A stretch of 64,000 nucleotides of DNA, taken from the NCBI GenBank assembly GCA_016712345.1, contig JADJRH010000002.1, forward strand, positions 8,466 through 72,465. Direction: 5' to 3'. Origin of the DNA: Polyangiaceae bacterium (GTDB lineage: Bacteria > Myxococcota_A > Polyangia > Polyangiales > Polyangiaceae). Positions 7,940-62,130 of this stretch are shown one piece after another. Every line of letters begins with the position of its first letter. Within the stretch, counting starts at the first letter, position 1. The translations under genes and the position numbers were made by a program. The notes beneath the pieces were generated by a model. The model was not told where the DNA came from and ran no database searches. It saw only the letters and a program-made list of their open reading frames with translations.

Positions 7940-8030
7940 GCTGAACGTGGCAATCTGCTGCAAGCCCCAAAAGCAAGCAGAGCGGCCGAAGGACGCTCTG
8001 CGCAGCGTTGGGGTTTGCCAGCAGCATTGC
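7940..8030 (-). other. attC site 6 (family A)
   Basis: Degenerate CTGAAC box at the 5' end, GTTAGGT box at the 3' end. Family A arms. Confidence 0.65.
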
Positions 8031-10492: not shown

Positions 10493-10593
10493 GTCTAACG
10501 TGGCAATCTGCTGCAAGCCCCAAAAGCAAGCAGAGCGGCCGAAGGACGCTCTGCGCAGCGCTGGGGATTGCCAGCAGCATTGCCGAGTTAGGT
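10493..10593 (-). other. attC site 8 (family A)
   Basis: GTCTAAC...GTTAGGT boxes. Family A arms. Confidence 0.75.
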
Positions 10594-11629: not shown

Positions 11630-11796
11630 ACCTAACGTGGCATTCAGCCGCAAAGGCCGCATCCCGCAACGTGTCAGGTGGGAAGAGGGAAGCCGCCGAG
11701 CCACATCCGTAAAACTCAAAAAAAGTGCTCGGCGGCGACCCGTGCGAGACGTGACCGGACGCGACGGCCTTTGTCGGCTGCAATGCCGAGTTAGAC
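11630..11796 (-). other. attC site 9 (family L)
   Basis: ACCTAAC...GTTAGAC boxes. Long palindrome. Confidence 0.65.
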
Positions 11797-19979: not shown

Positions 19980-20080
19980 GTCCAACGTTGCGGTGTGCTG
20001 CGGCCGGGCGGCGCAAGCAGGGCGGACGAAGGACGCCCTGCGCAGCAAGCCTGGCCGTCAGTACCAGCGCATGGTTGGGC
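19980..20080 (-). other. attC site 15 (family C)
   Basis: GTCCAAC...GTTGGGC boxes. Family C arms. Confidence 0.7.
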
Positions 20081-21179: not shown

Positions 21180-21283
21180 GCCCAACGTGGGGTTGTGCTG
21201 CAAGCCCCGAGAGCAAGCAGAGGGGCGCGTCAGCGACGCTCTGCGCAGCGTCGGGGCTTGTCAGAACCAACCCCTGGTTGGGC
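21180..21283 (-). other. attC site 16 (family G)
   Basis: GCCCAAC...GTTGGGC boxes. Family G arms. Confidence 0.7.
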
Positions 21284-22299: not shown

Positions 22300-22400
22300 G
22301 CCCAACGTGGCAATCAGCTGCAAGCATTCTGAGCGAGCAGGGCAGACGGAGGATGCCCTGCGCTGCGAGAGTGCTTGTCAGATGCATTGCCGAGTTGGAC
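22300..22400 (-). other. attC site 17 (singleton family E)
   Basis: GCCCAAC...GTTGGAC boxes. Arms GGCAATCAGCTGCAAGCATTCTGA / TCAGATGCATTGCC. Confidence 0.6.
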
Positions 22401-27038: not shown

Positions 27039-27141
27039 TCCAACGTGGGGTTGTGCTGCAAGCCCCGAAAGCAAGCAGAGGGGCGCGTCAGCGACGCTCT
27101 GCGCAGCGTCGGGGTTTGTCAGAACCAACCCCTGGTTGGGC
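27039..27141 (-). other. attC site 20 (family G)
   Basis: GTCCAAC...GTTGGGC boxes. Family G arms. Confidence 0.7.
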
Positions 27142-28159
27142 ACCGCACGCTGGGTAGCTTTCTCTCGCATTTGCACCACCGCGCGGCTTGTTTTGAAGGG
27201 GGAATGCGCGTTCGATAAATGTACACAAGGCCGTCCGAATGAGGATCGCCGAATGTGTACACTGGTCAAGTTTCGCGCCATAAACCCACCAACCGCTGCG
27301 TACGCGCCGTAGACTACGCGTATCAACATGACCGTCAAGTACAATCTGTAGCCGCGAGGGTGATGCGCTCGGGGGGATAACGCTACGCTCACGAAAACGC
27401 TGGCGTACATGCAACCGCCGACGAGTCGAAAAGAAAGTCGGAAGGCCGAGCCGCGGCCTACGGGCGAACGCGAAGTATCGAAAGCAAAGACGCCTCGCCG
27501 TGAGGAACCGAAATACAAGGTGGTTTATCCGAAGGTGCGAATCAAGCGCTTCGAAAAACCGCACAGCTTGCGGAAAAAACATCACCGCACCTGACACTCA
27601 GCGAAGCGCGATATGTGTACACGCACCGAAGTTACCCATGCCGACGTGTTGGCGACCGCACGCCGATGCCGACAAAAACAAGCGAAGCGCGACAAGTGTA
27701 CCCATGTGAAGGCCGTCCGAATTATTGTGTACACGTGGGTACATTCTACCTTTTCGAAAAGAAGCGAAGCGCGACTCGTGGGGCAACCGTTTCGACTCAA
27801 CAATACCGCCGCTGGAGCGAAGCGACCAAACCCCGTGACGGACTGCGCCTCGATTGGAATTGGACCCCTCCACTCAACAGTCAACCAGTCAACCAGTCAA
27901 CCAGTCAACCAGTCAACCAGTCAACCAGTCAACCAGTCAACCTTACCGCCCCACGCGATATGTTATTTCCGAGGGTAGAAACATCTCTCTCGCAGACACG
28001 CTCATTGTCAAATTCAGAATCGCAACTGAAGGGTAAGATAGCAGGTAAAGCTTGATCAAATGTGCCTTCAAAATAGACTCAACAACGCTTCCTCAAGCCA
28101 AGGCCTGACACTGCCTTTCTGGGAAAAAAGATGAGCGCCTCTACCCAGAAATTCTGTGT
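27142..28159 (-). repeat. ORF-less cassette payload, family N3
   Basis: Collinear with 21284..22299. Confidence 0.6.
27890..27943. repeat. Tandem octamer array (GTCAACCA)x6-7
   Basis: Same array in an N3 cassette. Confidence 0.8.
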
Positions 28160-28263
28160 GCCCAACGTGGGGTTGTGCTGCAAGCCCCGAGAGCAAGCAG
28201 AGGGGCGCGTCAGCGACGCTCTGCGCAGCGTCGGGGTTTGTCAGAACCAACCCCTGGTTGGGC
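28160..28263 (-). other. attC site 21 (family G)
   Basis: GCCCAAC...GTTGGGC boxes. Family G arms. Confidence 0.7.
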
Positions 28264-29280
28264 ACCGTACGCTGGGTAGACTTCTCTCGCATTTGCACCA
28301 CCGCACGGCTTGTTTTGAAGGGGAAATGCGCGTCCGACAAATGTACACAAGGGCGTCCAAATGAGGATCGCCGAATGTGTACACTGGTCAAGTTTCGCGC
28401 CATAAACCCACCAACCGCTGCGTACGCGCCGTAGACTACGCGTATCAAAATGACCGTCAAGTACAATCTGTGGCCGCGCGGGTGATGGCGCTTGGCGCGT
28501 GCAAGCATAACGCCAACCTCACGAAATACCCGGCGTACATGCGACCGCCGACGAGTGGAAAGAAAGCCGGAAGGCCGAGCCGCGGCCTACGCGCGAACGC
28601 GAAGTATCGAAAGCAAAGACGCCTCGCCGTGAGGAACCGAAATACAAGGTGGTTTATCCGAAGGTGCGAATCAAGCGCTTCGAAAAACCGCACAGCTTGC
28701 GGAAAAAACATCACCGCACCTGACACTCAGCGAAGCGCGATATGTGTACACGCACCGAAGCTACCCATGCCGACGTGTTGGCGACTGCACGCCGATGCCG
28801 ACAAAAACAAGCGAAGCGCGACAAGTGTACCCATGTGAAGGCTACGCAAATTATTGTGTACACGTGGGTACATTCTACCTTTTCGAAAAGAAGCGAAGCG
28901 CGACTCGTGGGGCAACCGTCTCGACTCAACAATACCGCTGCCGGAGCGAAGCGACCAAACCCGGTGACGGACTGCGCCTCCATTGAAATTAGGCCCTCCA
29001 CTCGACCAGTCAACCAGTCAACCGGTCAACCAGTCAACCAGTCAACCAGTCAACCAGTCAACCTTACCGCCCCACGCGAGATGTTATTTCCGAGGGTAGA
29101 AACATCTCTCTCGCAGACACGCTCATTGTCAAATTCAGAATCGCAACTGAAGGGTAAGATAGCAGGTAAAGCTTGATCAAATGTGCCTTCAAAATAGACT
29201 CAACAACGCTTCCTCAAGCCAAGGCCTGACACTGCCTTTCTGGGAAAAAAGATGAGCGCCTCTACCCAGAAATTCTGTGT
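28264..29280 (-). repeat. ORF-less cassette payload, family N3
   Basis: Collinear with 21284..22299. Confidence 0.6.
29008..29064. repeat. Tandem octamer array (GTCAACCA/GTCAACCG)x7
   Basis: Same array; one unit has a substitution. Confidence 0.8.
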
Positions 29281-29376
29281 GCCCAACGCTCGCTTCAGCT
29301 GCGGCGAGCCGAGGGGCGCCCGGAGGGCGCCACGAGGCCGCCGCCAGCTGCAAGCGGGTGTTCGGCAGCACTACCC
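29281..29376 (-). other. attC site 22 (singleton family F, GC-rich)
   Basis: GCCCAAC box at the 5' end, degenerate GTTCGGC box at the 3' end. Arms GCTCGCTTCAGCTGCGGCG / CGCCGCCAGCTGCAAGCGGG. Confidence 0.5.
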
Positions 29377-30681: not shown

Positions 30682-30770
30682 GCCGAACGTGGCAATCTGC
30701 TGCGGGCACTTGAGCAAGTGCGCTTGCGCACGCCGCGATGGTGCCCGTCAGCAGCATTGCCGAGTTAGGT
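30682..30770 (-). other. attC site 23 (family H)
   Basis: GCCGAAC...GTTAGGT boxes. Arms GGCAATCTGCTGCGGGCAC / GTGCCCGTCAGCAGCATTGCC. Confidence 0.65.
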
Positions 30771-31931
30771 ACCTGACCCCCAGTAGAGCGCTTTCGAAAT
30801 TGGAATTGCGCCGCTCGCGTTTGGTTGGGAACAAGCGTTTCCCAATTGTGTACACGACGCAGGCCCAAGAGCGCTGGTCCGATGTGTACACACAATCGAT
30901 TTCGCGCTGCCAAACCCACGAAAACCTCCGCGCAGAACGCATACTACCTGTATCAACCGCCATGTCAACGCTTTCGCGTGCGCCGCGAGGACAGCGAAGG
31001 TTGATGCCCAACGCAGGCAATGTGGCGTACGACAGCGAAGGCCAAACCGCGACCACGCGGTCTGGCCCATAACACACTACGAGCGCTCGGAGTGACAGCG
31101 AGACGGTGAGGGCGTGGTCCGAATTTCAGGGAGCTTTTCGCCGAAGGCGGAGGGGAAACGCTTACACCTGAGAGTTTCGGCGATCTACCCATGCGGCACA
31201 AAAAGCGCCTGACCTGTCGCTTTGAGTGTGTACACGGAGTGCCGACTGACGCGATGCCTCCCGGGGACGACCTGAAATACAAGTTTGCTCATCCGAAGGT
31301 GCAACTGAAGGCGTTTCGAGGCCCGCTTAGCTTGAAAAGAAACATACCAGCGCACCTGACCTCAAGCGAAGCGCGACAAAGTGTACACGCACTATGGCTA
31401 CCGATACCGTCGTGTTGGCGATATTCATGACCGCCCCGAAAAATAAGCGAAGCGCGACAAGTGTACCCATTAAAACCTACCCAATCTCGACTGCGTACAC
31501 GTGGGTACACATGAACTTTTCGAAACGAAATGAAGCGCCATCCAACACCAGGCGGTTTTCAATTGAGTCATGCCGCCCCGAATGTGTCGCATCGAAACCG
31601 AATGGGTCAACTCCAAATCAACCGACTCCCACATGGTCCGATCACAAATAGATGACGGCTTATGAATATACCCCACCGGATGAACCAGATGCGTGTTGCG
31701 GGGGAGAGCGTTTTGGACCGATCCGTTTCGCCTTTCAACCCAGCCGCCGGTGAGAAAGGTCAAGTTTGCACGACCCTTAGAAAAGCGCCTTTACCTGCGA
31801 AATACCCTACGTCACCCACCGAGAAAATTCAGGCGAGCTTACCCACACAATTGCTGCGTACCTTTATCTGCGAAATACCCTACGTCACCCACCGAAAAAA
31901 TCCAGGCGATTCTACCCACGAAATTCTGTGT
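30771..31931 (-). repeat. ORF-less cassette payload, N1-like
   Basis: Diverged N1 relative with the same motif order. Confidence 0.5.
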
Positions 31932-32033
31932 ACCTAACGTGCCGTTGAGCTGCAGACATCCTGAGCCAGCAGCGCGGCCGAAGGACGCGCTGCGCCGCGA
32001 TGGTGGCTGGCAGATCCAACGGCGAGTTAGATA
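31932..32033 (-). other. attC site 24 (singleton family I)
   Basis: ACCTAAC...GTTAGAT boxes. Arms GCCGTTGAGCTGCAGACATC / GATCCAACGGC-like inverted arms. Confidence 0.55.
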
Positions 32034-34170: not shown

Positions 34171-34274
34171 ATCTAACGTGGGGTTGTGCTGCAAGCCCCG
34201 AAAGCAAGCAGAGGGGCGCGTCAGCGACGCTCTGCGCAGCGTCGGGGTTTGTCAGAACCAACCCCTGGTTGGGC
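34171..34274 (-). other. attC site 25 (family G)
   Basis: ATCTAAC...GTTGGGC boxes. Family G arms. Confidence 0.7.
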
Positions 34275-35291
34275 ACCGTACGCTGGGTAGATTTCTCTCG
34301 AATTTGCACCACCGCACGGCTTGTTTTGAAGGGGAAATGTGCGTCCGATAAATGTACACAAGAGCGTCCAAGTGAGGATCGCCGAATGTGTACACTGGTC
34401 AAGTTTCGCGCCATAAACCCACCAACCGCTGCGTACGCGCCGTAGACTACGCGTATCAACATGACCGTCAAGTACAATCTGTAGCCGCGAGGGTGATGCG
34501 CTCGGGGGGATAACGCTACGCTCACGAAAACGCTGGCGTACATGCAACCGCCGACGAGTCGAAAAGAAAGTCGGAAGGCCGAGCCGCGGCCTACGGGCGA
34601 ACGCGAAGTATCGAAAGCAAAGACGCCTCGCCGTGAGGAACCGAAATACAAGGTGGTTTATCCGAAGGTGCGAATCAAGCGCTTCGAAAAACCGCACAGC
34701 TTGCGGAAAAACATCACCGCACCTGACACTCAGCGAAGCGCGATATGTGTACACGCACCGAAGTTACCCATGCCGACGTGTTGGCGACCGCACGCCGATG
34801 CCGACAAAAACAAGCGAAGCGCGACAAGTGTACCCATGTGAAGGCCGTCCGAATTATTGTGTACACGTGGGTACATTCTACCTTTTCGAAAAGAAGCGAA
34901 GCGCGACTCGTGGGGCAACCGTTTCGACTCAACAATACCGCTGCTGGAGCGAAGCGACCAAACCCCCGTGACGGACTGCGCCTCCATTGAAATGGACCCC
35001 TCCACTCAACAGTCAACCAGTCAACCAGTCAACCAGTCAACCAGTCAACCAGTCAACCAGTCAACCAGTCAACCTTACCGCCCCACGCGATATGTTATTT
35101 CCGAGGGTAGAAACATCTCTCTCGCAGACACGCTCATTGTCAAATTCAGAATCGCAACTGAAGGGTAAGATAGCAGGTAAAGCTTGATCAAATGTGCCTT
35201 CAAAATAGACTCAACAACGCTTCCTCAAGCCAAGGCCTGACACTGCCTTTCTGGGAAAAAAGATGAGCGCCTCTACCCAGAAATTCTGTGT
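34275..35291 (-). repeat. ORF-less cassette payload, family N3
   Basis: Collinear with 21284..22299. Octamer array present. Confidence 0.6.
35012..35076. repeat. Tandem octamer array (GTCAACCA)x8
   Basis: Same array in an N3 cassette. Confidence 0.8.
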
Positions 35292-35390
35292 GCCCAACGT
35301 GGCAATCTGCTGCGGGCACTTGAGCAAGTGCGCTTGCGCACGCCGCGATGGTGCCCGTCAGCAGCATTGCCGAGTTAGGTACCTGACCCC
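35292..35390 (-). other. attC site 26 (family H)
   Basis: GCCCAAC...GTTAGGT boxes. Family H arms. Confidence 0.65.
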
Positions 35391-36437
35391 CAGTAGAGCG
35401 CTTTCGAAATTGGAATTGCGCCGCTCGCGTTTGGTTGGGAATAAGCGATTCCCAATTGTGTACACGACGCAGGCCCAAGAGCGCTGGTCCGATGTGTACG
35501 CACAATCGATTTCGCGCTGTCAAACCCACGAAAACCTCCGCGCAAAACGCATACTACCTGTATCAACCGGCATGTCAACGCTTTCGCGTGCGCCACGAGG
35601 ACAGCCAAGGTCGATGCCCAACGCAGGCAATGCGGCAAACGATTGCGAAGGCCAAACCGCGACCACGCGGTTTGGCCCATGACACAATACGAGCGCTCCG
35701 AGTGACAGCGAGACGGTGAGGGGTGAGGGCGTGGTGCGAATTTCATGGAGCCTTTCGCCGAAGGCGGACGGGAAACGCGTACGCCTGAAAGTTTTGGCGA
35801 TCTACCCATACGCTACAAAAACGCGTGACCTGTCGCTTCGAATGTGTACACGGAGTGCCGACTGACGCGATGCCTCCCAGGGAGGAACCGAAATACAAGT
35901 TTGCTCATCCGAAGGTGCAACTGAAGGCGTTTCGAGGCCCACTTAGCTTGAAAAGAAACATACAGCGCACCTGACCTCAAGCGAAGCGCGAAAAAATGTA
36001 CACGCACTGCGGCTAACCGATGCCGTCGTGTTAGCGATATTCATGATCGCCCCGAAAATAGGCGAAGCGCGACAAGTGTACCCATGAAAACCTACCCAAT
36101 CTCGACTGCGCACACGTGGGTACACATGAACTTTTCGGAACGAAATAAAGCGCCGTCCAATGCGAGGTGGCTTTCAACTGAGTCATGCCGCGGTGGATGT
36201 GTCGCATCGAAAACCGAACGGGTCGACTCAAAATCTACCCACTCCCACATGGTCCGATCACAAATAGATGACGGCTTATGAATATCCCCCACCGGATGAA
36301 CCAGATGCGTGCTGCGGTTGGAGAACGTTTTGGACCGACCCGTTTCGCCCTCAACCGGCCGGCAGTGTAGAAAGGTCAAGTGTACACGACCTTGAAAAAA
36401 CGCCTCCATCCACCGACCTACCCACGAAATTCTGTGT
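35391..36437 (-). repeat. ORF-less cassette payload, N1-like
   Basis: Diverged N1 relative. Followed by the degenerate attC remnant. Confidence 0.5.
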
Positions 36438-36500
36438 ACCCAACGCGCCAATCTGCTGCGAGGATGAACGACACACTTGTCGCGGGAGTAGAATTTTGGG
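36438..36500 (-). other. Degenerate attC remnant (5' half only)
   Basis: ACCCAAC box followed by GCGCCAATCTGCTGCGAGG, with no matching 3' arm or GTTRRRY box. Followed by a short, roughly 140-bp cassette-boundary-only remnant. Confidence 0.4.
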
Positions 36501-36640
36501 GCCGACCGTCTTGCCCTCAGCCCAGCGGCCAGTGAAGAAAGGCCAGTGTGCTCGACCCTTAGAAAAGCGCCTCGATCCTCGAAGTGCCCGCGTCACCCAC
36601 CGAAAAAAATCCAGGCGATTCTACCCACGAAATTCTGTGT

Positions 36641-36741
36641 ACCTAACGTGGTATTCTGCTGCGGGCAGGCGGCGCAAGCAGAGCGGACGAAGGACGCTCT
36701 GCGCAGCAAGCCTGACCGACAGCAGCAATACCTGGTTGGAC
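36641..36741 (-). other. attC site 27 (family B)
   Basis: ACCTAAC...GTTGGAC boxes. Family B arms. Confidence 0.7.
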
Positions 36742-39000: not shown

Positions 39001-39101
39001 CCCCAACGTGGCAATCTGCTGCAAGCCCCAAAAGCAAGCAGAGCGGCCGAAGGACGCTCTGCGCAGCGTTGGGGTTTGCCAGCAGCATTGCCGAGTTAGG
39101 T
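39001..39101 (-). other. attC site 29 (family A)
   Basis: CCCCAAC...GTTAGGT boxes. Family A arms. Confidence 0.7.
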
Positions 39102-40182
39102 ACCTGACTCCCAGCAGGGTGTTTTCGAAATTGGAATTGCGCCGCTCGCGTTTGGTTGGGAATAAGCGTTTCCCAATTGTGTACACGACGCAGGCCCAAG
39201 AGCGCTGGTGCGATGTGTACGCAAAATCGATTTCGCGCTGTCAAACCCACGAAAACCTCCGCGCAAAACGAATACTACCCGTCTCAATCGGCCTGTCAAC
39301 GCTTTGTCGCGCGTCGCGAAGACAGGCGAAGTCGACGCTCATCGCCGGCAACGCGGCACACGATCGTGAAGGCCAAACCGCGATGACGCCTTGGGACAAA
39401 TCGGAGCGCGCCGAAATGTTGGCGAGATGGCACCAGCCTCCGCGAAATACAATCTGGCATTTCGCCGAAGGCGTATAGGAAACGCCGGAAAACCAGGGCC
39501 ATTTCGTCGATCTACCCATTCCCATCCAATTGCGCTGCCTTCTCTCCGAATGTGTACACTAAGTGTCGTTTGACATGAGGCATCTCAGGGACGAATCCGA
39601 AATACAAGTTGGCTTATCCGAAGGTGCAAATGAAGCGTTTTGAGAAACGCGCTGATTCAAAAAGAACAACGCCGCACCGAACCTCATGCGAAGCGCGATA
39701 TTTGTGTACACGCACCGCGGCTACGCGTGCCGGCGTGTTTGCGTTGTTACACGAACGCCCTGAGAAGAAGCGAAGCGCGACAAGTGTACCCATGAAAACC
39801 TACCCATGGTCGATTGCGCACGCGTGGGTACACACAAGCTTTTCGGACGAAATGAGCGCCGATCAAAGCAAAGTGGTTTTCAACTGAGTCACACCGCCCA
39901 CGGATGTGTCGCATCGAAACCGAACCGCCAAGTCCAAATCTACCCATGCTTGGACATGGTCAGATCATGAATTGATAATGGATTACGAAGAGAAGCCCAC
40001 CGCATGAGCGACCGGTCGTCGCGGGAGTAGAATTTCGCACGTACCCACCTCGCATCTCAACGCGACTGCCGGTGGTGAATAGTCAGAATATGCAGGGTAC
40101 CCCCAAAAAAGCCTCTACTCACCAATTGCTCAGGCCCACCTTATGACGAAATTCAAACAACTCTACCCACAAAATTCTGTGT
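39102..40182 (-). repeat. ORF-less cassette payload, family N1
   Basis: Collinear with 2897..3980. Confidence 0.6.
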
Positions 40183-40280
40183 ACCTAACGTGGGGTTGAG
40201 CTGCAGCCGTCCGCGCAGCAAGTGGCCGGCGCCGCCGGCCACGCCGCAAGCAGGCTGTCAGATCCAACCCCGTGTTGGGC
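40183..40280 (-). other. attC site 30 (singleton family J)
   Basis: ACCTAAC...GTTGGGC boxes. Arms GGGGTTGAGCTGCAGCCGTCC / GGCTGTCAGATCCAACCCC. Confidence 0.55.
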
Positions 40281-43087: not shown

Positions 43088-43125
43088 GGTTGCTCATCTC
43101 CCGGCGCTGTCGTCCGTTGAACGTG

Positions 43126-43204
43126 GCAATCTGCTGCGGGCACTTGAGCAAGTGCGCTTGCGCACGCCGCGATGGTGCCCGTCAGCAGCATTGCCGAGTT
43201 AGGC
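43126..43204 (-). other. attC site 32 (family H)
   Basis: GTTGAAC...GTTAGGC boxes. Family H arms. Confidence 0.6.
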
Positions 43205-44293
43205 ACCTGACCCCAAGTAGAGCGCTTTCGAAATTGGAAATGCGCCGCTCGCGTTTGGCTGGGAATAGGCGTTTCCCAATTGTGTACACGACGCAGACCC
43301 AAGAGCGTTGGTCCGATGTGTACGCACAATCGATTCCGCGCTGTCAAACCCACGAAAACCTCCGCGCAAAACGAATACTACCTGTATCAACCGGCATGTC
43401 AACGCTTTCGCGTGCGCCACGAGGACAGGCAAGGTCGATGCCCAACGCAGGCAATGCGGCAAACGATGGCGAAGGCCAAACCGCGACCACGCGGTTTGGC
43501 CCATGACACAATACGAGCGCTCGGAGTTGACAGCGAGAGGGTGAGGGCGTGGTGCGAATTTCATGGAGCCTTTCGCCGAAGGCGGATGGGAAACGCGTAC
43601 ACCTGAAAGTTTCGACGATCTACCCATGCGCCACACAAAGCGCCTGACCTGTCGCTTCGAATGTGTACACGGAGAGCCGACTGACACGACGCGTTCTCGG
43701 GGACGAAACCGAAATACGAGTTTGCTTATCCGAAGGTGCAACTGAATGCGTTTCGAGGCCCATTCGGTTTATAAAAACATACCAGCGCATCTGACCTCAA
43801 GCGAAGCGCGACAAAGTGTACACGCACCGCGGCTGCCAGTGCTAGGTGTCTGCGTTGTTACGAAAACGCTCCAAAAATAAGCGAAGCGCGACAAGTGTAC
43901 CCATGAAAACCTACCCAATCTCAACTGCGCACACGTCGGTACACAAGAACTTTTCGGAACGAAATGAAGCGCGGTCTAATGCGAGATGGTTTTCAATTGA
44001 GTCATGCCGGCCCGAATGTGTCGCATCGAATACCCCGAATGTGTCGACTCCAAATCAACCCACTCCCACATCGTCCGATCACAAATAGATAACGGCTTAT
44101 GAATATACCCAGCGGATGAACCACATGCGTGTTGCGGGGGAGATTTTTGGACGGACCCATTTCGCTTATCAACTCGGCCGCCGGTGTAGAAAGGTCAAGT
44201 GTGCCCGACCCTTCGAAAAGCGCCTCGATCCACGAAATACCCACGTCACCCACCGACAAAAATCCAGGCGATTCTACCCACGAAATTCCGTGT
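43205..44293 (-). repeat. ORF-less cassette payload, N1-like
   Basis: Diverged N1 relative. Confidence 0.5.
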
Positions 44294-44394
44294 GCCTAAC
44301 GTGGCAATCTGCTGCAAGCCCCAAAAGCAAGCAGAGCGGCCGAAGGACGCTCTGCGCAGCGTTGGGGTTTGCCAGCAGCATTGCCGAGTTAGGT
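44294..44394 (-). other. attC site 33 (family A)
   Basis: GCCTAAC...GTTAGGT boxes. Family A arms. Confidence 0.7.
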
Positions 44395-45450
44395 ACCTGA
44401 CTCCCAACAGAGTGTTTTCGAATTTGTAACGCCGCACGCCGCGTTTTGAAGGGAGTAGCCGATGCCCAATTGTGTACACGAGGCAAACCGACGAGCGCCG
44501 ACTCGGTGTATACACAATTTTGACTTCGCGCTGCCAGACCCACCGAGAACCTCCGCGCGAAACGAATACTACCCGTCTCAACCGGGCTGTCAACGCTTTC
44601 GAGCATGTCACCAGCGCCACCAAAATTGACGCCCACCTCAAGCAACGTTGTCCAAGATCGGGCAGACCAAACCGCGACGGCCCGCTCTGTCCACGAAAAC
44701 GCACGAAGGTGCCGAAATGTTGGCGAGATGAAAACCAACCTGCGCGAAACAGGAAACGCCTACAAGCGGGCAGTTTCGTTGATCTACCCATGCGCTCCCA
44801 ACTGCGCGGCCTTCGCTCCGAATGTGTACACGGAGTGTCGACGGACACGAGGCCTCTCAGGGGCGAACCCGAAGTACGAGGAAGCTCATCCGAAGGGGCA
44901 AATGAAGCGTTTTGAGCAACGCTCCGATTCAAAAAGAACAATGCCGCACCGAATATCAAGCGAAGCGCGACACTTGCGTACACGCACCGCGGCCACGCAT
45001 GACAGCGTGGTTATGTTGTTGCGCGAACGCCGCAAAAAGAAGCGAAGCGCGACAAATGTACCCATGAAAACCTACCCATGACCGACCGCGCGCGCGTGGG
45101 TACACACAAACTTTTCGGACGGAATGAGCGCCCATCAAAGCAAATTGGTTTTCAAATGAGTCATACCGCCCACGGACATGTCGCATCGAACCCAAATCCG
45201 TCAACTCCAAATCTACCCACGGTCGGACATGGTTAGATCATGAATTGATAATGGATTATGAAGATACCCCACCGGATGAACGACCGGTCGCCGCGGGCGT
45301 ATAATTTTTGAACTTACCCGCCCTCAACCCGACTGCCGGTGAAGAACGATTAGGATATGCAGAATCCCTCGCAAAAGAGCCTCCGCGCACCAACTGCCCA
45401 AGTGCGCTTTCCGAGAAAATTCAAGCGATTCTAGCCACGAAATTCTGTGT
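44395..45450 (-). repeat. ORF-less cassette payload, family N1
   Basis: Near-copy of 8031..9068. Confidence 0.6.
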
Positions 45451-45554
45451 ACCTAACGTGGGGTTGTGCTGCAAGCCCCGAGAGCAAGCAGAGGGGCGCG
45501 TCAGCGACGCTCTGCGCAGCGTCGGGGCTTGTCAGAACCAACCCCTGGTTGGAC
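45451..45554 (-). other. attC site 34 (family G)
   Basis: ACCTAAC...GTTGGAC boxes. Family G arms. Confidence 0.7.
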
Positions 45555-48620: not shown

Positions 48621-48734
48621 TTCTCGCCCCACCCAACGTGGGGTTGTGCTGCAAGCCCCGAAAGCAAGCAGAGGGGCGCGTCAGCGACGCTCTGCGCAGC
48701 GTCGGGGCTTGTCAGAACCAACCCCTGGTTGGGC
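48621..48734 (-). other. attC site 36 (family G)
   Basis: ACCCAAC...GTTGGGC boxes. Family G arms. Confidence 0.7.
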
Positions 48735-49729
48735 ACCGTACGCTGGGTAGATTTCTCTCGAATTTGCACCATCGCACGGCTTGTTTTGAAGGGGAAATGC
48801 GCCCGCGATAAATGTACACAAGGCCGTCCAAATGAAGAACGCCGGGTGTGTACACTGGTCAAGTTTCGCGCCATAACCCACCAACCGCTGCGTACGCCTC
48901 GTAGACTACGCGGATCAAATTGACCGTCAAGCACAATCTGTGACCGCAAGAGTGATGCGCTCGGGGCTTGCACGCATGACGTCGACCTCACGAGAGGCCC
49001 GGTGTACACGACCGCCCGCGAATCGAAAAGAAAGCCGGAAGGCCGAGCCGCGGCCTACGCGCGGCTTGGCCCTTCGAGCGCGAACGCGAAGTATCGAAAG
49101 CAAAGGCGCCTCACCGTGAGGAACCGAAGTACAAGGCGGCTTATCCGAAGGTGCGAATGAAACGTTTCGAAAAACCGTGCTGCCGGCAGAAAAAAACATC
49201 ACCGCATCTGACACTCCGCGAAGCGCGATGTGTGTACACGCACCGCAGCTACCCATGCCGACGTGTTAGCGACTGAACGCGGATGCCGACAAAAACAAGC
49301 GAAGCGCGACAAGTGTACCCATGTGAAGGCCGTCCGAATTATTGTGTACACGTGGGTACATTCTACCTTTTCGAAAAGAAGCGAAGCGCGACTCGTGGGG
49401 AAACCGCTTCGACTTAGCAAAACCGCCACCGGAGCGAAGCGACCAAACCCCGTGAAAGATTAGGCCTCCATTCGATGGAAACCTCCACTCAACGGACTTC
49501 CACTCAACTTCACCGGCCCACCTGACATGTCATTCCGAACGGTGGAAAAAATCTCGCTCTCACACACGCTGCTTTCCAAATTCAGGGTAGCAACTGAAGG
49601 GTAAGATCCGATGAAGAGTGGTCGCATGTGCCTCAAAAAAAATAGACTCAACAACGCTCCATCACCCCAAGGACTGACACTGCCTTTCTGGGAAAAAAGA
49701 TGAGCGCCTCTACCCAGAAAATTCTGTGT
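48735..49729 (-). repeat. ORF-less cassette payload, N3/N4 hybrid
   Basis: 5' two-thirds resembles N3; 3' end resembles N4. No octamer array. Confidence 0.5.
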
Positions 49730-49818
49730 GCCCAACGTGGCAATCTGCTGCGGGCACTTGAGCAAGTGCGCTTGCGCACGCCGCGATGGTGCCCGTCAGC
49801 AGCATTGCCGAGTTAGGT
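49730..49818 (-). other. attC site 37 (family H)
   Basis: GCCCAAC...GTTAGGT boxes. Family H arms. Confidence 0.65.
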
Positions 49819-50907
49819 ACCTGACCCCCAGTAGAGCGCTTTCGAAATTGGAATTGCGCCGCTCGCGTTTGGTTGGGAATAAGCGTTTCCCAATTGTGTA
49901 CACGACGCAGGCCCAAGAGCGCTGGTGCGATGTGTACGCAAAATCGATTTCGCGCTGTCAAACCCACGAAAACCTCCGCGCAAAACGAATACTACCTGTA
50001 TCAACCGGCATGTCAACGCATTCGCGTGCGCCACGAGGACAGCCAAGGTCGATGCCCAACGCAGGCAATGCTGCCCCACGACGGCGAAGGCCAAACCGCG
50101 ACCACGCGGTCTGGCCCGTGACACAATAGGAGCGCTCCGAGTGACAGCGAGACGGTGAGGGCGTGGTGCGAATTTCAGGGAGCTGTTCGCCGAAGGCGGA
50201 CGGGAAACGCTTACACCTGAAAGGTCCGGCGATCTACCCATGCGCCACAAAAACGCGTGATCTGTCGCTTCGAATGTGTACACGGAGAGCCGACTGACGC
50301 GATGCCTCCCGGCGAAGAACCGAAATACAAGTTTGCTCATCCGAAGGTGCAACTGAAGGCGTTTCGAGGCCCACTTAGCTTGAAAAGAAACATACCAGCG
50401 CACCTGACCTCAAGCGAAGCGCCACAAAGTGTACACGCACCGCGGCTGCCAGTGTTAGGTGTCTGCGTTGTTACGAAAACGCTCCAAAAATAAGCGAAGC
50501 GCGACAAGTGTACCCATGAAAACCTACCCAATCTCGACTGCGCACACGTGGGTACACATGAACTTTTCGGAACGAAATGAAGCGCCATCCAACACAAGGC
50601 GGTTTTCAATTGAGTCATGCCGCCCCGAATGTGTCGCATCGAAACCAAATGGGGGTCGACTCCAAATCAACCCACTCTCACATGGTCCGATCACAAATAG
50701 ATGACGCCTTATGAACATACCCCACCGGATGAACCAGATGCGTGTTGCGGGGGAGAACGTTTTGGACGGAGGCATTTCGTCCCTCAACCCAGCCGCCGGT
50801 GAAGAAAGGTCAAGTGCGCACGATCCTTAGAAAAGCGCCTTTACCTGGGAAATACCTACGTCACCCACCGAGAAAATCCAGGCGAGTCTATCCACGAAAT
50901 TCCGTGT
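49819..50907 (-). repeat. ORF-less cassette payload, N1-like
   Basis: Diverged N1 relative. Confidence 0.5.
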
Positions 50908-51011
50908 ACCTAACGTGGCAATCTGCTGCAAGCCCCAAAAGCAAGCAGAGGGGCGCGCCAGCGACCCTCTGCGCAGCGCTGGGGTTTGCCAGCAGCATTG
51001 CCGAGTTAGAC
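50908..51011 (-). other. attC site 38 (family A variant)
   Basis: ACCTAAC...GTTAGAC boxes. Family A arms around the central GAGGGGCGCGCCAGCGACCCTCTG. Confidence 0.65.
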
Positions 51012-53411: not shown

Positions 53412-53515
53412 ACCCAACGTGGGGTTGTGCTGCAAGCCCCGTGAGCAAGCAGAGGGGCGCGTCAGCGACGCTCTGCGCAGCGCCGGGGCTTGTCAGAACC
53501 AACCCCTGGTTGGGC
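53412..53515 (-). other. attC site 40 (family G)
   Basis: ACCCAAC...GTTGGGC boxes. Family G arms. Confidence 0.7.
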
Positions 53516-54558
53516 ACCATGCTCTGGGTAGACTGCTCACGCATTTTCACCACCTCCCGCCTTGTTTTGACGGGGAAATGCGCCTGCGATAAATGTACAC
53601 AAGGCCGTCCAAATGAAGAACGCCGGGTGTGTACACTGGTCAAGTTTCGCGCCATAACCCACCAACCGCTGCGTACGCCTCGTAGACTACGCGGATCAAA
53701 TTGACCGTCAAGCACAATCTGTGACCGCAAGAGTGATGTGCTCGGGGCTTCCACGCATGACGTCGACCTCAGGAGAGCCCCGGTGTACACACGACCGCGC
53801 GCGAATCGAAAAGAAAGCAGGAAGGCCGAGCCGCGGCCTACGCGCGGCTTGGCCCTTCGAGCGCGAACGCGAAGTATCGAATGCAAAGACGCCTCGCCGT
53901 GAGGAACCGAAATACAAGGTGGTTTATCCGAAGGTGCGAATCAAGCGCTTCGAAAAACCGCACGGCTTGCGGAAAAAACATCACCGCATCTGACACTCCG
54001 CGAAGCGCGATATGTGTACACGCACCGAAGTTACCCATGCCGACGTGTTGGCGACCGCACGCGGATGCCGACAAAAACAAGCGAAGCGCGACAAGTGTAC
54101 CCATGTGAAGGCCGTCCGAATTATTGTGTACACGTGGGTACATTCTACCTTTTCGAAAAGAAGCGAAGCGCGACTCGTGGGGCAACCGTTTCGACTCAAC
54201 AATACCGCTGCTGGAGCGAAGCGACCAAACCCCGTGACGGACTGCGCCTCCATTGAAATTGGACCCCTCCACTCAACAGTCAACCAGTCAACCAGTCAAC
54301 CAGTCAACCAGTCAACCAGTCAACCAGTCAACCAGTCAACCTTACCGCCCCACGCGATATGTTATTTCCGAGGGTAGAAACATCTCTCTCGCAGACACGC
54401 TCATTGTCAAATTCAGAATCGCAACTGAAGGGTAAGATAGCAGGTAAAGCTTGATCAAATGTGCCTTCAAAATAGACTCAACAACGCTTCCTCAAGCCAA
54501 GGCCTGACACTGCCTTTCTGGGAAAAAAGATGAGCGCCTCTACCCAGAAATTCTGTGT
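53516..54558 (-). repeat. ORF-less cassette payload, family N3
   Basis: Collinear with 21284..22299. Octamer array present. Confidence 0.6.
54279..54341. repeat. Tandem octamer array (GTCAACCA)x8
   Basis: Same array in an N3 cassette. Confidence 0.8.
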
Positions 54559-54659
54559 GCCCAACGTGGTATTCTGCTGCGGGCAGGCGGCGCAAGCAGG
54601 GCCGACGAAGGAGGCCCTGCGCAGCAAGCCTGCCCGTCAGCAGCAATACCGAGTTATAC
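54559..54659 (-). other. attC site 41 (family B variant)
   Basis: GCCCAAC box at the 5' end, degenerate GTTATAC box at the 3' end. Arms GGTATTCTGCTGCGGGCAGG / CCTGCCCGTCAGCAGCAATACC. Confidence 0.6.
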
Positions 54660-55861: not shown

Positions 55862-55962
55862 GTATAACGTGGCAATCTGCTGCAAGCCCCAAAAGCAAGC
55901 AGAGCGGCCGAAGGACGCTCTGCGCAGCGCTGGGGTTTGCCAGCAGCATTGCCGAGTTAGGT
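55862..55962 (-). other. attC site 42 (family A)
   Basis: GTATAAC...GTTAGGT boxes. Family A arms. Confidence 0.7.
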
Positions 55963-57048
55963 ACCTGACTCCCAGCAGAGTGTTTTCGAATTTGCAACGC
56001 CGCACGCCGCGTTTTGAAGGGAGGAGCCGATTCCCAATTGTGTACACGAGGCAAACCCACGAACGCCGATTCGGTGTGTACGCAAATCAGATTTCGCGTC
56101 GCCAAACCCACCGAAGACCTCCGCGCGAAACGAATACTACCTGTCTCAACCGGCCTGTCAACGCTTTCCCGCACGTCGCGAAAAGCCCAAGTCGACGCTC
56201 ATCGGAGGCAACATGGCACACGACGCGAAGGCCAGATCGTGACAACGCGGTTTGGCCCTTGAGACAAATCGGAGCGCGCCGAAATGTTGGCGAGATGGCA
56301 CCAGCCTCCGCGAAGTACAACTTGCATTTCGCCGAAGGCGTATTGGAAACGCCAGAAAACCAGGCCGTTTCGTTGATCTACCCATGCGCTCCCACCTGCG
56401 CGGCCTTCGCCCCGAATGTGTACACTAAGTGTCGTTTGACATGAGGCATCTCAGGGACGAATCCGAAATACAAGTTGGCTTATCCGAGGGCGCAAATGAG
56501 GCGTTTTGAGAAACGCTCCGATTCAAAAAGAACAACGCCGCACCGAGCCTCATGCGAAGCGCGATATTTGTGTACACGCACCGCGGCTGCGCGTGCCGGC
56601 GTGTTTGCGTTGTTACACGAACGCCTTGAGAAGAAGCGAAGCGCGACAAGTGTACCCATGAAAACCTACCCATGGTCGACTGCGCACGCGTGGGTACACA
56701 CAAGCTTTTCGAACGAAATGAGCGCCGGTCAAAGCAAAGCGGTTTTTCAAAGGAGTCACACCGCCCACGGATGTGTCGCATCGAAACCGAACGGCCAAGT
56801 CCAAATCTACCCACGCTTAGCCATGGTCAGATCGTGAATTGATAACGGATTGCGAAGATAACCCCACCAGATGAGCGATCGGTCGTCGCGGGAGTAGAAT
56901 TTCGCACGTACCCACCTCGCTCCTCAATGCGACTGCCGGGGTGAATAGTCAGAATATGCAAAGTACCCCCCAAAAAGCCTCTACTCACCAACTGCCCAAG
57001 TCCACATTCTGACAAAATTCAAGCGATTCTACTCACGAAATTCTGTGT
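55963..57048 (-). repeat. ORF-less cassette payload, family N1
   Basis: Collinear with 39102..40182. Confidence 0.6.
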
Positions 57049-57149
57049 ACCTAACGTGGTATTCTGCTGCGGGCAGGCGGCGCAAGCAGGGCGGACGAAG
57101 GACGCCCTGCGCAGCAAGCCTGGCCGACAGCAGCAATACCTGGTTGGGC
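57049..57149 (-). other. attC site 43 (family B)
   Basis: ACCTAAC...GTTGGGC boxes. Family B arms. Confidence 0.7.
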
Positions 57150-58311
57150 CCCGACTTTGATGTAACTTGGCATTCGAGTTGTAATGTCGCCGGCCGTTCT
57201 CCCTGAAAGATCGCCGACCTGACAGAACGACTTCGTGCGACAAAACTTGGCATACGTGCTGGGCTGCGTGTGTACACATTTGCGCTCGACAAATCCACAT
57301 CGCGCGCCGCGTTTCCCGCCGAGTTGCCTGTCACACCACGAATACTACCTGTACGCGAGGTGCCGTCAAGTGCGATTTTCGGGCGCTTATCACCCCACGA
57401 ACGCACCGCAACGGAGTGTACCTTTTCGCCCGAGGCTCCCAAGATGGGTAGAAGGCTGCGCTGCGTCCTCCGCGTGTACAAGGAGTATCGATTGTGGTTG
57501 TGCTCGCCGGGAGGAACCGAAACACAAGGCTGCTGATCCGAAGGCGCACATCAAGCGTTTCAAACCCCACGCGGTTTGTAAAAAACAGAAAATCGTAATC
57601 CAAAAGAAGCGAAGCGCGATATGTGTACAAGCATCGAAGCTACCCATGCCGACGTGTTGGCGACTGAACAGCGATGCCAAGAAAAACAAGCGAAGCGCGA
57701 CAAGTGTACCCATGTCAAGGCTACCGGAACTCGTGTGTACACATGGGTACATGCTACCTTTTGAAAAGATGCGAAGCGCGACTCGTGGAGAAACCGTCGC
57801 GGCTTTGCAACACCGCAGTTGGAGCGAAGCGACGAAGGGCTGATCACATAAGTCTGATTCGACTCAACTTCACTGGTCTACCTGACTTAATGTGACCTGA
57901 CCCTCTCCTTCACAACCGTAACAAATTGCTTTTCAATCTCGGGATTCCGGCAAAGGGTAGGGTGCCGTAACAAATTCACCGAATACGGAACGGAAAATAG
58001 ACTCAACAAGGTTTTCTACCCAACACCGCTGTTGGCGCGAGGTGACGAAACCAATGAACCAATGGATCTCCCTTCAATGGATCTCCACTCAACTTCACCG
58101 CGCCACCTGACATGCTATTCAGATCGGTAGAAAAACCCGCCTCAGAAACATGCTTCTTGCCAGATTCAAGTCCCAACCGAAGCGTAAGATTCCGGCAGCA
58201 AATGCACCAGATGTGGCGCGAAAATCAGGCTCAACAACGCTTCCTCACCCCAAGGACTGACGGCGCCTTCTGAGAAAAAACATGAGCGCCTCTACCCAGA
58301 AAATTCTGTGG
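57150..58311 (-). repeat. ORF-less cassette payload, family N4
   Basis: Three tandem N4 cassettes lie nearest attI. Shares the N core. Confidence 0.6.
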
Positions 58312-58412
58312 GCCCAACGTGGTATTCTGCTGCGGGCAGGCGGCGCAAGCAGGGCGGACGAAGGACGCCCTGCGCAGCAAGCCTGACCGACAGCAGCAAT
58401 ACCTGGTTGGGC
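58312..58412 (-). other. attC site 44 (family B)
   Basis: GCCCAAC...GTTGGGC boxes. Family B arms. Confidence 0.7.
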
Positions 58413-59591
58413 CCCGACTTTGATGTAACTTGGCATTCGAGTTGTAATGTCGCCGGCCGTTCTCCCTGAAAGATCGCCGACCTGACAGAACGACTTCGTG
58501 CGACAAAACGCGGCATACGCACTGGGCTGCGCGTGTACACATTTGCGCCCGACAAATCCACATCGCGCGCCGCGTTTCCCGCCGAGTTGCCTGTCACGCC
58601 ACGAATACTACCTGTACAAGAGGTGCCGTCAAGTGCGATTTTCGGACGCTCATCGCCCCACGAACGCACCGCGACGGAGTGCACCTTTTCGCCGGAAGCT
58701 CCTACGATGGGTAAAAGGCTGCGCCGTGGCCTCCGCATGTACAAGGAGTATCGATTGTGGTTGTGCTCGCCGCGAGGAACCGAAATACAAGGCTGCTCAT
58801 CCGAAGGCGCACATCAAGCGTTTCAAACCCGGCGCGCTTTGTAAAAAACAGAAAATCGTAATCCAAAAGAAGCGAAGCGCGATATGTGTACACGCACCGA
58901 AGCTACCCATGCCGACGTGTTGGCGACTGAACGGGGATGCCGAGAAAAACAAGCGAAGCGCGACAAGTGTACCCATGTCAAGGCTACCGAAACCCGTGCG
59001 TACACATGGGTACATTCTGCCTTTTGAAAAGATGCGAAGCGCGACTCGTGGAGAAACCGTCGCGGCTTTGCAACACCGCAGTTGGAGCGAAGCGACGAAA
59101 GGGCTGAGCAGATAAGTTTGATTCGACTCAACTCAACTCAACTCAAACTTCACTGCTCAACCTGACTTAATCTGACCTGACCCTCTCCTTCACAACGGCG
59201 ACAAATTGCTTTTCAATCTCAGGATTCCGGCAAAGGGTAGGGTGCCGTAACAAGTTCACCAAATACGGCCGGAAAAATAGGCTCAACAAGGCTCTCTACC
59301 CAACACCGCTGTTGGCGCGAAGCGACGAAACCAATGAACCAATGGATCTCCATTCAACGGATCTCCACTCAACTTCACCGCGCCACCTGACATGCCATTC
59401 AGATCGGTAGAAAAATCCGCCCCACAAACATGGTTCTTGCCAAATTCAAGATCACGATCGAAGCGTAAGATTTCGGCAGCAAATTCACCAGATGTGGCGC
59501 GAAAATCAGGCTCAACAACGCTTCCTCAGCCCAAAGACTGACGGGGCCTTCTGGGAAAAATATGAACGCCTCTACCCAGAAAATTCTGTGG
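58413..59591 (-). repeat. ORF-less cassette payload, family N4
   Basis: Collinear with 57150..58311. Confidence 0.6.
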
Positions 59592-59692
59592 GCCCAACGT
59601 TGCGGTGTGCTGCGGCCGGGCGGCGCAAGCAGGGCGGACGAAGGACGCCCTGCGCAGCAAGCCTGGCCGTCAGTACCAGCGCATGGTTGGGC
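59592..59692 (-). other. attC site 45 (family C)
   Basis: GCCCAAC...GTTGGGC boxes. Family C arms. Confidence 0.7.
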
Positions 59693-60791: not shown

Positions 60792-60893
60792 TGCCCAACG
60801 TGGTATTCTGCTGCGGGCAGGCGGCGCAAGCAGGGCGGACGAAGGACGCCCTGCGCAGCAAGCCTGGCCGACAGCAGCAATACCTGGTTGGGC
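60792..60893 (-). other. attC site 46 (family B); belongs to first (attI-proximal) cassette
   Basis: GCCCAAC...GTTGGGC boxes. Family B arms. Confidence 0.7.
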
Positions 60894-62055
60894 CCCGACT
60901 TTGATGTAACTTGGCATTCGAGTTGTAATGTCGCCGGCCGTTCTCCCTGAAAGATCGCCGACCTGACAGAACGACTTCGTGCGACAAAACGCGGCATACG
61001 CACTGGGCTGCGCGTGTACACATTTGCGCCCGACAAATCCACATCGCGCGCCACGTTTCCCGCCGAGTTGCCTGTCACGCCACGAATACTACCTGTACAA
61101 GAGGTGCCGTCAAGTGCGATTCTCGGGCGCTCATCGCCCCACGAACGCACCGCAACGGAGTGTACCTTTTCGCCGGAAGCTCCCAAGATGGGTAGAAGGC
61201 TGCGCCGTAGCCTCCGCATGTACAAGGAGTATCGAGGGTGGTTGTGCTCGCCGGGAGGAACCGAAATACAAAGCTGCTCATCCGAAGGCGCACATCAAGC
61301 GTTTCAAACCCCGCGCGGTTTGTAAAAAACAGAAAATCGGAATCCAAAAGAAGCGAAGCGCGATATGTGTACACGCACCGAAGCTACTCATGCCGACGTG
61401 TTTGCGACTGAACGGCGATGCCGAGAAAAACAAGCGAAGCGCGACAAGTGTACCCATGTCAAGGCTACCGAAACTCGTGCGTACACATGGGTACATTCTG
61501 CCTTTTGAAAAGAAGCGAAGCGCGACTCGTGGAGAAACTGTCTCGACTTGGCAACGCCGCTGTTGGAGCGAAGCGACGAAAGGCCGAGCAGATAAGTTTG
61601 ATTCGACTCAACTTCACTGCTCTACCTGACTTAATCTGACCTGACCTCTCCTTCACAACGGTAACAAATTGCTTTTCAATCTCAGGATTCCGGCGAAGGG
61701 TAGGGTGCCGTGACAAATTCACCAAATACGGCACGAAAAAATAGACTCAACAAGGTTTTCTACCCAACACCGCTGTTGGCGCGAGGCGACGAAACCAATG
61801 AACCAATGGATCTCCATTCAACGGATCTCCACTCAACTTCACCGCGCCACCTGACATGCCATTCAGATCGGTAGAAAAAATCCGCCTCACAAACATGCTT
61901 CTTGCCAAATTCAGGATCCCAACCGAAGCGTAAGATTCCGGCAGCAAATTCACCAGATGTATCTGAAAATCAGGCTCAACAACGCTTCCCCACCCCAGAG
62001 ACTGAGGGCGCCTTCTGGGAAAAAACATGAGCGCCTCTACCCAGAAAATTCTGTG
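60894..62055 (-). repeat. ORF-less cassette payload, family N4 (first cassette next to attI)
   Basis: Collinear with 57150..58311. Ends at the GCCCAA|C boundary adjoining the putative attI. Confidence 0.6.
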
Positions 62056-62130
62056 GGCCCAACGTGTAATGGGCAGTTCCGCGGGGCGGGGCGAGACTGG
62101 AGGAACGCCAATGATGGACTGCGGAAAGTG
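62056..62130 (-). other. Candidate attI site (junction of first cassette with the intI-proximal region)
   Basis: The array ends at GCCCAA|C (about 62056-62062). Next comes GTGTAATGGGC; on the top strand this reads GCCCATTACAC-GTTGGGC, which resembles the attI1 simple site GCCCTAAAACAAAGTTAGGC. Base composition changes abruptly just beyond this point. Confidence 0.5.

Follow-up and report, generated by a model that had tools for sequence, protein, structure and literature searches.

The 64,000-nucleotide (nt) stretch of DNA analyzed here (contig JADJRH010000002.1, hereafter the window) is a large chromosomal integron of a Polyangiaceae metagenome-assembled genome (MAG), in which 47 attC recombination sites and the attI site define 48 cassette boundaries. 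A conserved block that begins many of its cassettes, and a heptamer that recurs inside them (TGGGTAG on the minus strand, CTACCCA on the forward strand), had been described in a first-pass annotation as a near-universal, cargo-independent boundary element. Our analysis indicates that block and motif are almost certainly the signature of one cassette family and not a universal boundary. They are likely the hallmarks of a single amplified, gene-less promoter/leader cassette family. A promoter/leader function for this family is suggested, with somewhat less assurance, by the elements that its members conserve, and the roles proposed below for the block and the heptamer are tentative.

The block is present where it had been reported: GAGCGCCTCTACCCAGAAAATTCTGTGGGCCCAAC opens the cassette next to attI (C47; Table 1), whose minus strand reads TTGGGC CCACAGAATTTTC TGGGTAG AGGCGCTC. 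The enrichment of CTACCCA against a shuffled background is large, with 93 copies in the window when 2.62 are expected and the largest shuffle gave 8, and when up to three mismatches are allowed, the 27-nt core CTACCCAGAAAATTCTGTGNNCCNAAC is matched 18 times against 0 expected. Conservation likewise exceeds chance, as subfamily representatives share 92% identity over the first 21 nt. The first-pass annotation had also correctly recognized the integron array, the direction of its cassettes, and the position of the block inside the cassette, beside the crossover point on the minus (sense) strand.

The distribution of the block is far narrower than the supposed "almost every cassette, coding or not." Only 23 of the 48 boundaries carry it, and none of these belongs to a coding cassette. 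Listing the 45 nt before every attC resolved the 23 copies into 18 with at most three mismatches and 5 with a one-base deletion; each of the other 25 boundaries shows at least nine mismatches over 19 nt, and none of the 25 non-family cassettes has the block. One further copy is an internal remnant at positions 36418-36444. All-against-all blastn of the 47 cassette bodies placed all the complete block-bearing cassettes (22/22) in one homology cluster, which removes the premise of unrelated cargos, and distributed the 25 non-family cassettes, with cargo annotated as in Table 1 or unknown, over 16 clusters. Thus, what had looked like a cargo-independent element is restricted to one paralogous gene-less family. 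The long form of the block that includes GAGCGCCT occurs only five times and is confined to one subfamily. The reported four to seven motif copies per noncoding cassette were also an overestimate, since TGGGTAG is found one to six times per family cassette (mean, 3.1), and subfamily A1 has one or two copies plus an inverted one.

The family comprises 22 of the 47 complete cassettes (47% of the array), with bodies of 995 to 1260 nt that fall into five subfamilies (A1, A2, B, C, and D). Identity reaches 87-100% within subfamilies (80-97% in B) and 50-67% between them, except for B versus D (70-76%). The window edge truncates a 23rd member. In one subfamily D cassette (C27), the internal block adjoins the 3' half of an attC (GCAGCAGATTGGCGC GTTGGGT), and the presence of a block beside a truncated attC indicates that two family cassettes were fused by deletion of most of an attC. 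Since a central module, a promoter-like element, and a 3' hairpin are also common to the members of the family, the recurrence of the block is explained mainly by common descent.

The family is very probably non-coding. In none of the subfamilies do substitutions concentrate at third positions in any 300-nt window, frame-shifting indels of 1-2 nt are common in the conserved center of the cassettes, and the only recurrent open reading frame (ORF) has a ratio of nonsynonymous to synonymous change (pN/pS) of 0.8-1.2 between subfamilies. A value of about 1 also rules out a candidate leader ORF, considered below, as a conserved peptide. The longest stop-to-stop frames of both strands gave no Pfam match above the cutoff and no transposase domain. 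Rfam 15 yielded no match, either at gathering thresholds across the full window or at E<=1 for positions 55900-62100, and a tRNA search found none. Two other candidates were rejected: a recurrent plus-strand ORF of 202-216 amino acids (aa) in A2, whose translation is low-complexity, rich in Arg, Cys, and Lys, and not conserved, and a 290-aa ORF in C17, which has the same length as the HNH ORF of the coding cargo and is unrelated to the HNH protein. On this evidence, the cassettes hold no protein-coding gene.

On the sense strand, a family cassette starts with TTRRRY, followed by a near-invariant 21 nt, (A/C)CACAGAATTT(T)(C/G)TGGGTAGA. Beyond the block, identity between subfamily representatives is 64% at positions 22-100 and 60% at positions 101-300, against 56-59% in shuffled controls. 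The block contains a small palindrome, followed by TGGGTAG, that is kept by compensating changes: it reads CACA-GAATTT-TGTG in B and C, CACG-GAATTT-CGTG in C33 and C38, and CAGA-ATT(T)-TCTG in A. The 5' third is otherwise subfamily-specific and holds zero to five further TGGGTAG copies. In A1, this variable third includes a tandem run of six to seven GGTTGACT octamers (about 27878-27925 in C21), with homologous runs in C17, C22, C26, and C41. A central region of about 300 nt holds the invariant 22-mer GGGTACAYTTGTCGCGCTTCGC, once in each of the 22 cassettes, and TCGCGCTTCGC occurs 53 times in the window, always on the sense strand, with two or three copies per cassette at a period of 80-82 nt.

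Two elements toward the 3' end carry the promoter/leader interpretation. All 22 cassettes have a promoter-like TTGAC-N17-TAGT(A/C)T with invariant hexamers and varying spacers, and 168-171 nt (192 nt in A2) separate it from the end of the cassette body. A hairpin follows 50-95 nt downstream of it, with arms formed by two GTGTACAC palindromes and with homologues in A1, B, C, and D. In this hairpin, 95.8% of the cells are paired, compared with 16-54% in slid controls, and five of the six inner pairs change on both sides. Its numerous G-U pairs would be A-C mismatches on the opposite strand, and this fit to one strand only points to a sense-strand transcript.

The heptamer is strongly polar. Block-bearing cassettes account for 68 of the 75 sense-strand copies found in cassette bodies. 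When each subfamily is represented by one cassette (5.6 kb in total), TGGGTAG ranks first among the 7-mers, with 19 copies versus 2 of its complement, and 21 kb of unique non-family cassettes contains 2 copies. Across subfamilies, copies have appeared and disappeared at about 13 non-homologous positions, and the motif columns are less variable than the other columns in four of the five subfamilies. This polarity, the turnover of positions, and the low variability argue for function, as judged from sequence patterns. In one case, the heptamer lies within a hairpin loop, the stem of which is GCGCAC/GTGCGC in B and CGGT/ACCG in C. Candidate identities for the block, the heptamer, and the 22-mer (DnaA box, sigma-54 at -24/-12, CRP-like, IHF, and FIS sites) were rejected, as the by-eye consensus matches were partial and inconsistent. 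We also considered intrinsic terminators at the cassette 5' end: many TGGGTAG copies precede a T run, folding predictions for the initial 100 nt vary from subfamily to subfamily, and a consensus scan reported fewer terminator-like sites than in shuffles.

In the reading that we favor, the putative sigma-70-like promoter would fire toward the cassette's own attC and the next cassette, yielding a structured leader RNA. The family would in this way supply transcription inside an array without a recognizable platform promoter (Pc) between intI and attI. A consensus scan found no sigma-70-like site there, so that internal promoters would matter in this array. The 5' block, with its small palindrome and TGGGTAG, and the internal heptamer copies would act as sense-strand-specific cis elements of the non-coding unit. 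Our best guess is that a factor binding the heptamer would read TGGGTAG on the transcript or on single-stranded DNA, and the boundary copy might also end translation that enters through the upstream attC.

Several observations weigh against this interpretation. The promoter is proposed from a consensus match and a conservation pattern, and cassette promoters are not reliably predictable in silico (PMC11014356). The promoter-like element lies downstream of the block and of most heptamers, so their own transcription would depend on read-through from the preceding cassette. The proposal that TGGGTAG is shown in unpaired RNA loops had to be abandoned, since its predicted accessibility in the sense RNA is average (mean percentile, 0.46). 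No covariation was detected in the central region (RNAalifold, 1/35 pairs), which implies a constraint on sequence and not on RNA pairing, and this would fit DNA-binding proteins equally well. Family cassettes show no preference for a place ahead of coding cassettes: 12 of the 22 precede a non-family cassette, approximately the random expectation. Finally, the family was not found in any other genome searched.

Among the alternatives, the one that survives best, while still unlikely, holds that the block extends the recombination site in this family: a small hairpin or palindrome next to the R' box, together with TGGGTAG, would raise excision or integration by the integrase IntI, so that a "selfish" cassette would have overrun the array. 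The block directly follows the crossover box, no other part of the 5' third is as conserved, and the palindrome by the R' box is maintained by the compensating changes described above. The five cassettes closest to attI all belong to the family, as do 14 of the 24 attI-proximal positions compared with 8 of the 23 distal ones. C46, second from attI, is near-identical to C16, 40 kb away. In the circular form of A1 cassettes, base pairing across attC joins the 3' tail CTCTACCCAG to the 5' CTGGGTAGAG; this pairing is limited to A1, so it does not amount to a general extension of the attC hairpin. Against such an aid stand the 25 block-less cassettes, which have the same attC types and include recently duplicated units (C11 = C29, C13/C14, and a six-copy family). 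The internal heptamers are also left unexplained. No attC function is known to need sequence outside R''-R'. The recombination enhancer suggested in the first-pass annotation is therefore dispensable for the array as a whole, since those 25 cassettes do without it, and keeps some plausibility for the family itself.

A second alternative, slightly less probable still, takes the boundary TGGGTAG as a translation stop or hand-over, with a leader ORF that runs through the cassette's own attC, melts the hairpin, and delivers ribosomes. A GGAGG-N5-6-GTG start is found at -149 in all 13 members of B, C, and D, about 22 nt after the -10-like box, and the same frame has a GTG at -149 in A2 and an ATG at -140 in A1. 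From there, the ORF stays open for 49 codons and across the entire attC, to end 11-92 nt inside the next cassette, with the block's TAG as the stop in about 17 of the 23 block copies; the pN/pS of about 1 would fit a peptide of irrelevant sequence. One sense-strand frame of attC lacks stops in 56/56 sites (47/47 here and 9/9 in two related genomes), and attC length is 2 mod 3 in 54 of these 56 (8/9 in the related loci L049 and L050). The lengths that follow this rule are 86, 89, 95, 98, 101, 104, and 167 nt, and the one exception in the window is a 73-nt site at 6490-6562. Translation through attC could thus occur, as the stop-free frame suggests. Furthermore, upstream translation and the small ORFs ORF-11 and ORF-17 affect downstream cassette expression (PMC11511950).

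The same sites are, however, generally poor in stops: attC has only about four recurrent stop positions, and the equivalent bottom-strand frame is open in 45/47. Because, in addition, each subfamily has two of the three registers of its cassette tails open, with no specificity for one frame, the leader-ORF signal is weak. A1 loses the in-frame TAG by a 1-nt deletion, and the palindrome and the internal heptamers find no explanation. Of the translation-related role raised earlier, only a hint persists, namely, that the TAG of TGGGTAG is in frame with the open frame through the upstream attC. A broader version, equally improbable in our estimation, would make the family a self-propagating "expression module" of Polyangiaceae integrons, in which a promoter and a Shine-Dalgarno-GTG leader ORF through its own attC, terminating either at the TAG of TGGGTAG or close to where the next gene starts, would provide both transcription and ribosome delivery. 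The block would double as a stop and a recombination-proximal element, which would explain the spread to half of the array.

That the block is itself a promoter or ribosome-binding site (RBS) for the cassette content, as the first-pass annotation had considered, is very improbable. It would place a -10 hexamer (TAGAAT/TAGAGG) inside TGGGTAGA.., the R' box then acting as -35, or a GAGG as a Shine-Dalgarno sequence before an ATG. B does read TTAGGT-N17-TAGAAT, and A2 has TAGAGGCGCTCATG ahead of an ORF of about 93 codons. The block as promoter is poorly supported because the best -35/-10 fit is weak: the -35 matches at two of six positions, the sites are not reported by the consensus scan, and the -10-like hexamer differs between subfamilies. 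An RBS for cargo is excluded because no conserved ORF follows the block. The GAGG-N5-ATG initiation signal was rejected as well, as it exists only in A2, has ATC in A1, is absent from B, C, and D, and has no coding signal after it.

Least probable of all is a non-autonomous transposable element (derived from a miniature inverted-repeat transposable element [MITE] or an insertion sequence [IS]) with the block as its terminal repeat, to which eight Sedimentisphaerales MAG contig ends carrying ...CTACCCACAAATTCTGTGGAAGAACC at a repeat end, in the same relative position as the block, lend some likeness; this likeness is limited to the 18-19 nt searched for (46 matches versus about 140 by chance, by our own estimate, so that a single multi-copy element among them is unremarkable), the family is bounded by complete attC sites at canonical crossovers, shows no terminal inverted repeat outside A1, and has no transposase, and it does not fit the definition of an IS or MITE.

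Table 1. Features of the integron in the window. Family cassettes were assigned by blastn clustering, subfamily comparison, and block position (abbreviated as family clustering); subfamilies are in parentheses.
Feature	Position	Strand	Basis
intI, integron integrase, 337 aa	62628..63641	-	sequence identity, PF13495 + PF00589
attI junction; minus strand reads ...CTGCCCATTACAC G/TTGGGC (slash, junction), then first cassette	62057..62110 (junction ~62063)	-	
Block GAGCGCCTCTACCCAGAAAATTCTGTGGGCCCAAC	62029..62063	-	first 35 nt of C47
Second TGGGTAG of C47, example of an internal, non-boundary copy	61760..61766	-	motif listing
Invariant 22-mer GGGTACACTTGTCGCGCTTCGC of C47	61434..61455	-	motif scan
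Promoter-like TTGACG-16-TAGTAT of C47	61086..61113	-	consensus + conservation
Homologous promoter-like elements, examples	3068-3095, 20251-20278, 35551-35578	-	homology
46-nt sense-strand hairpin of C03, downstream of promoter-like element	2973..3018	-	covariation
Candidate leader ORF within the cassette, example of C03	2897-3045	-	GGAGG-GTG, 85-109 codon ORF in B/C/D
Example attC sites	275-375, 5184-5287, 35292-35380		covariance model
C47 (A2), first after attI, own attC 60793-60893	60799..62062	-	family clustering
C46 (C), near-identical to C16	59598..60798	-	family clustering
C45 (A2)	58318..59597	-	family clustering
C44 (A2)	57055..58317	-	family clustering
C43 (B)	55868..57054	-	family clustering
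C41 (A1)	53418..54564	-	family clustering
C38 (D)	49736..50913	-	family clustering
C37 (A1)	48637..49735	-	family clustering
C34 (B)	44300..45456	-	family clustering
C33 (D)	43122..44299	-	family clustering
C30 (B)	39007..40188	-	family clustering
C27 (D), fusion with internal block 36418-36444	35298..36646 (cassette sequence 35381-36640)	-	family clustering
C26 (A1)	34177..35297	-	family clustering
C24 (D)	30688..31937	-	family clustering
C22 (A1)	28166..29286	-	family clustering
C21 (A1)	27044..28165	-	family clustering
C17 (A1)	21186..22305	-	family clustering
C16 (C)	19986..21185	-	family clustering
C09 (B)	10499..11635	-	family clustering
C07 (B)	7946..9074	-	family clustering
C04 (C), six TGGGTAG	3987..5189	-	family clustering
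C03 (B), five TGGGTAG	2802..3986	-	family clustering
23rd family cassette, 5' end, A2-like block 247-281, cut by window edge	1..280	-	block match
TIR_2 cassette cargo	5313-6437	-	Pfam
SIR2_2 cassette cargo	46939-48582	-	Pfam
HNH cassette cargo, two copies	16282-17154, 17777-18649	-	Pfam
PAAR cassette cargo	33463-34044	-	Pfam
BrnT toxin cassette cargo	1924-2271	-	Pfam
HicB-like/HTH antitoxin-domain cargo	25106-25882	-	Pfam
Six-copy plus-strand ORF family	9566-10324, 12126-12884, 19057-19815, 45885-46643; related 14616-15473, 51193-52098	+	ORFs

The integron assignment follows from an IntI, an attC array in one orientation, and discrete cassettes bounded at G/TTRRRY. IntI matches, at 100% identity, a protein named "MAG: integron integrase [Polyangiaceae bacterium]," and thousands of homologues also bear the name integron integrase; its next relatives, at 57-64% identity, include Minicystis rosea and other Polyangiaceae. 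RYYYAAC...GTTRRRY palindromes served as seeds for attC detection, 21 sites were aligned, and a covariance model built from the window sites then recovered 47 attC in a single orientation (36-114 bits), mostly of 101 or 104 nt. The attI junction was called at the last RYYYAAC box (62057-62063), which has no attC hairpin to its right. The cassette array lies 3' of intI on the same strand, with cassettes read on the minus strand, and two Polyangiaceae loci (L049 and L050) likewise have the array 3' of intI on the same strand. The unpaired bases of attC are single-base bulges on the 3' arm of the plus strand (which would be the bottom strand), for example, at 60793-60893, and this placement is the expected one. 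These bulged bases are C (near the R box) and A; in class 1 and Vibrio attC sites they are G and T.

The orientation of the cassettes is supported by C11 (13057-14285) and C29 (37778-39006), which share 1229 identical nt, running from the TTGGGG half-box up to and including the low-coordinate attC, and differ in their flanks. An identical unit with differing flanks implies that each cassette owns its low-coordinate attC and that the sense (top) strand is the minus strand. The two copies lie 24 kb apart with 0 mismatches, including a 95-nt attC of 80% G+C, and this identity is evidence of a very recent cassette duplication in the array. Every cargo protein with a Pfam match is encoded on the minus strand, and the annotated coding cargo is, going by its domains, of defense and toxin-antitoxin type. 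The six-copy cassette family has an ORF of 252-301 aa on the plus strand, antisense to the array and without a Pfam match.

The G+C content of the array is 53-59% (62.5% in one 2-kb stretch), and that of the intI end of the window is 60.5%. Around the related Polyangiaceae intI genes (L047-L050) it is 66-71%, and the cassettes are far poorer in G+C than the likely host genome. The 1.9-kb intI/attI region holds four plus-strand TGGGTAG copies (62420-62426, 62794-62800, 62917-62923, and 63472-63478), a polarity opposite to that of the array, when by our own estimate from base composition about 0.6 would be expected in this region; three of them lie inside intI as xCT-ACC-CAx codons using NCT.

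The family appears to be private to this genome, as far as the searched collections show. In 185,579 species genomes, among which the window's own genome is not included, the block pattern returned chance-level singletons and one repeat end. The latter belongs to the Sedimentisphaerales MAG JAFGTG01, where contig ends (L003, L017, L022, L028, L035, L036, and L037) finish with the same 85-nt sequence ...CTACCCACAAATTCTGTGGAAGAACC and continue into unique DNA. This repeat is the end of a multi-copy element, probably an insertion sequence, and the 18-19 nt that it shares with the block are most likely due to chance. The invariant 22-mer had 0 matches in a metagenome collection. The pattern TCGCGCTTCGC-N60-80-TCGCGCTTCGC had more than 120 matches there, which were discarded as unrelated GC-rich tandem repeats without blastn similarity, the pattern being too generic. 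Distant blastn against a plasmid collection found no match to the family. The comparison with related arrays proposed in the first-pass annotation gave no parallel either: the Polyangiaceae integrons L047-L050 have the same layout, and no family motif occurs within 10 kb after their intI.

A cargo-independent element on the crossover side would have meant a new component of integron recombination or expression; instead, these results describe what marks a single repeated cassette. A non-coding family of 1.1-kb units fills nearly half of the 47-cassette array, beside TIR, SIR2, HNH, PAAR, and toxin-antitoxin cargo. If the promoter is real, this would be a clear non-Vibrio case of internal promoter cassettes, and not the platform Pc, driving a large chromosomal array, and the block and the heptamer would be candidates for the regulation or the spread of such cassettes.

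Sedentary chromosomal integrons, such as the Vibrio cholerae superintegron, contain paralogous, near-identical cassettes at distant positions, as expected from excision followed by reinsertion at attI. In contrast to those duplications, the dominant repeat here is non-coding and forms five subfamilies in which short invariant elements are kept. The candidate leader ORF resembles ORF-11 and ORF-17 of attI1 (PMC11511950) in being a short ORF without a functional product whose translation across a recombination site may promote expression of the next cassette; it differs in that it starts in a gene-less cassette and crosses attC instead of attI, and it is suggested by the openness of the frame and its Shine-Dalgarno-GTG start. 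The closest parallel is provided by the gene-less cassettes of Vibrio superintegrons, for which sense-strand promoter activity has been shown experimentally (Blanco et al., Nucleic Acids Res 2024, PMC11014356). Like these Vibrionaceae cassettes, the family is bounded by attC, lacks ORFs, and is scattered among the coding cassettes of a large chromosomal array, and its promoter, as the conserved TTGAC-N17-TAGTNT suggests, would face the sense direction, toward downstream cassettes. Unlike them, the cassettes here are about 1.1 kb long, a single family makes up 47% of the array, and there is an additional 5' block, a polar heptamer, TCGCGCTTCGC at 81-nt spacing, and a covarying hairpin, which are not described in Vibrionaceae. 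Compared with the proposed internal-promoter gene-less cassettes in general, this family belongs to the phylum Myxococcota and has been amplified, and its promoter role is proposed from sequence. The family is probably a gene-less regulatory cassette of a kind already known, and it is unusual in its size, its copy number, and its conserved short elements.

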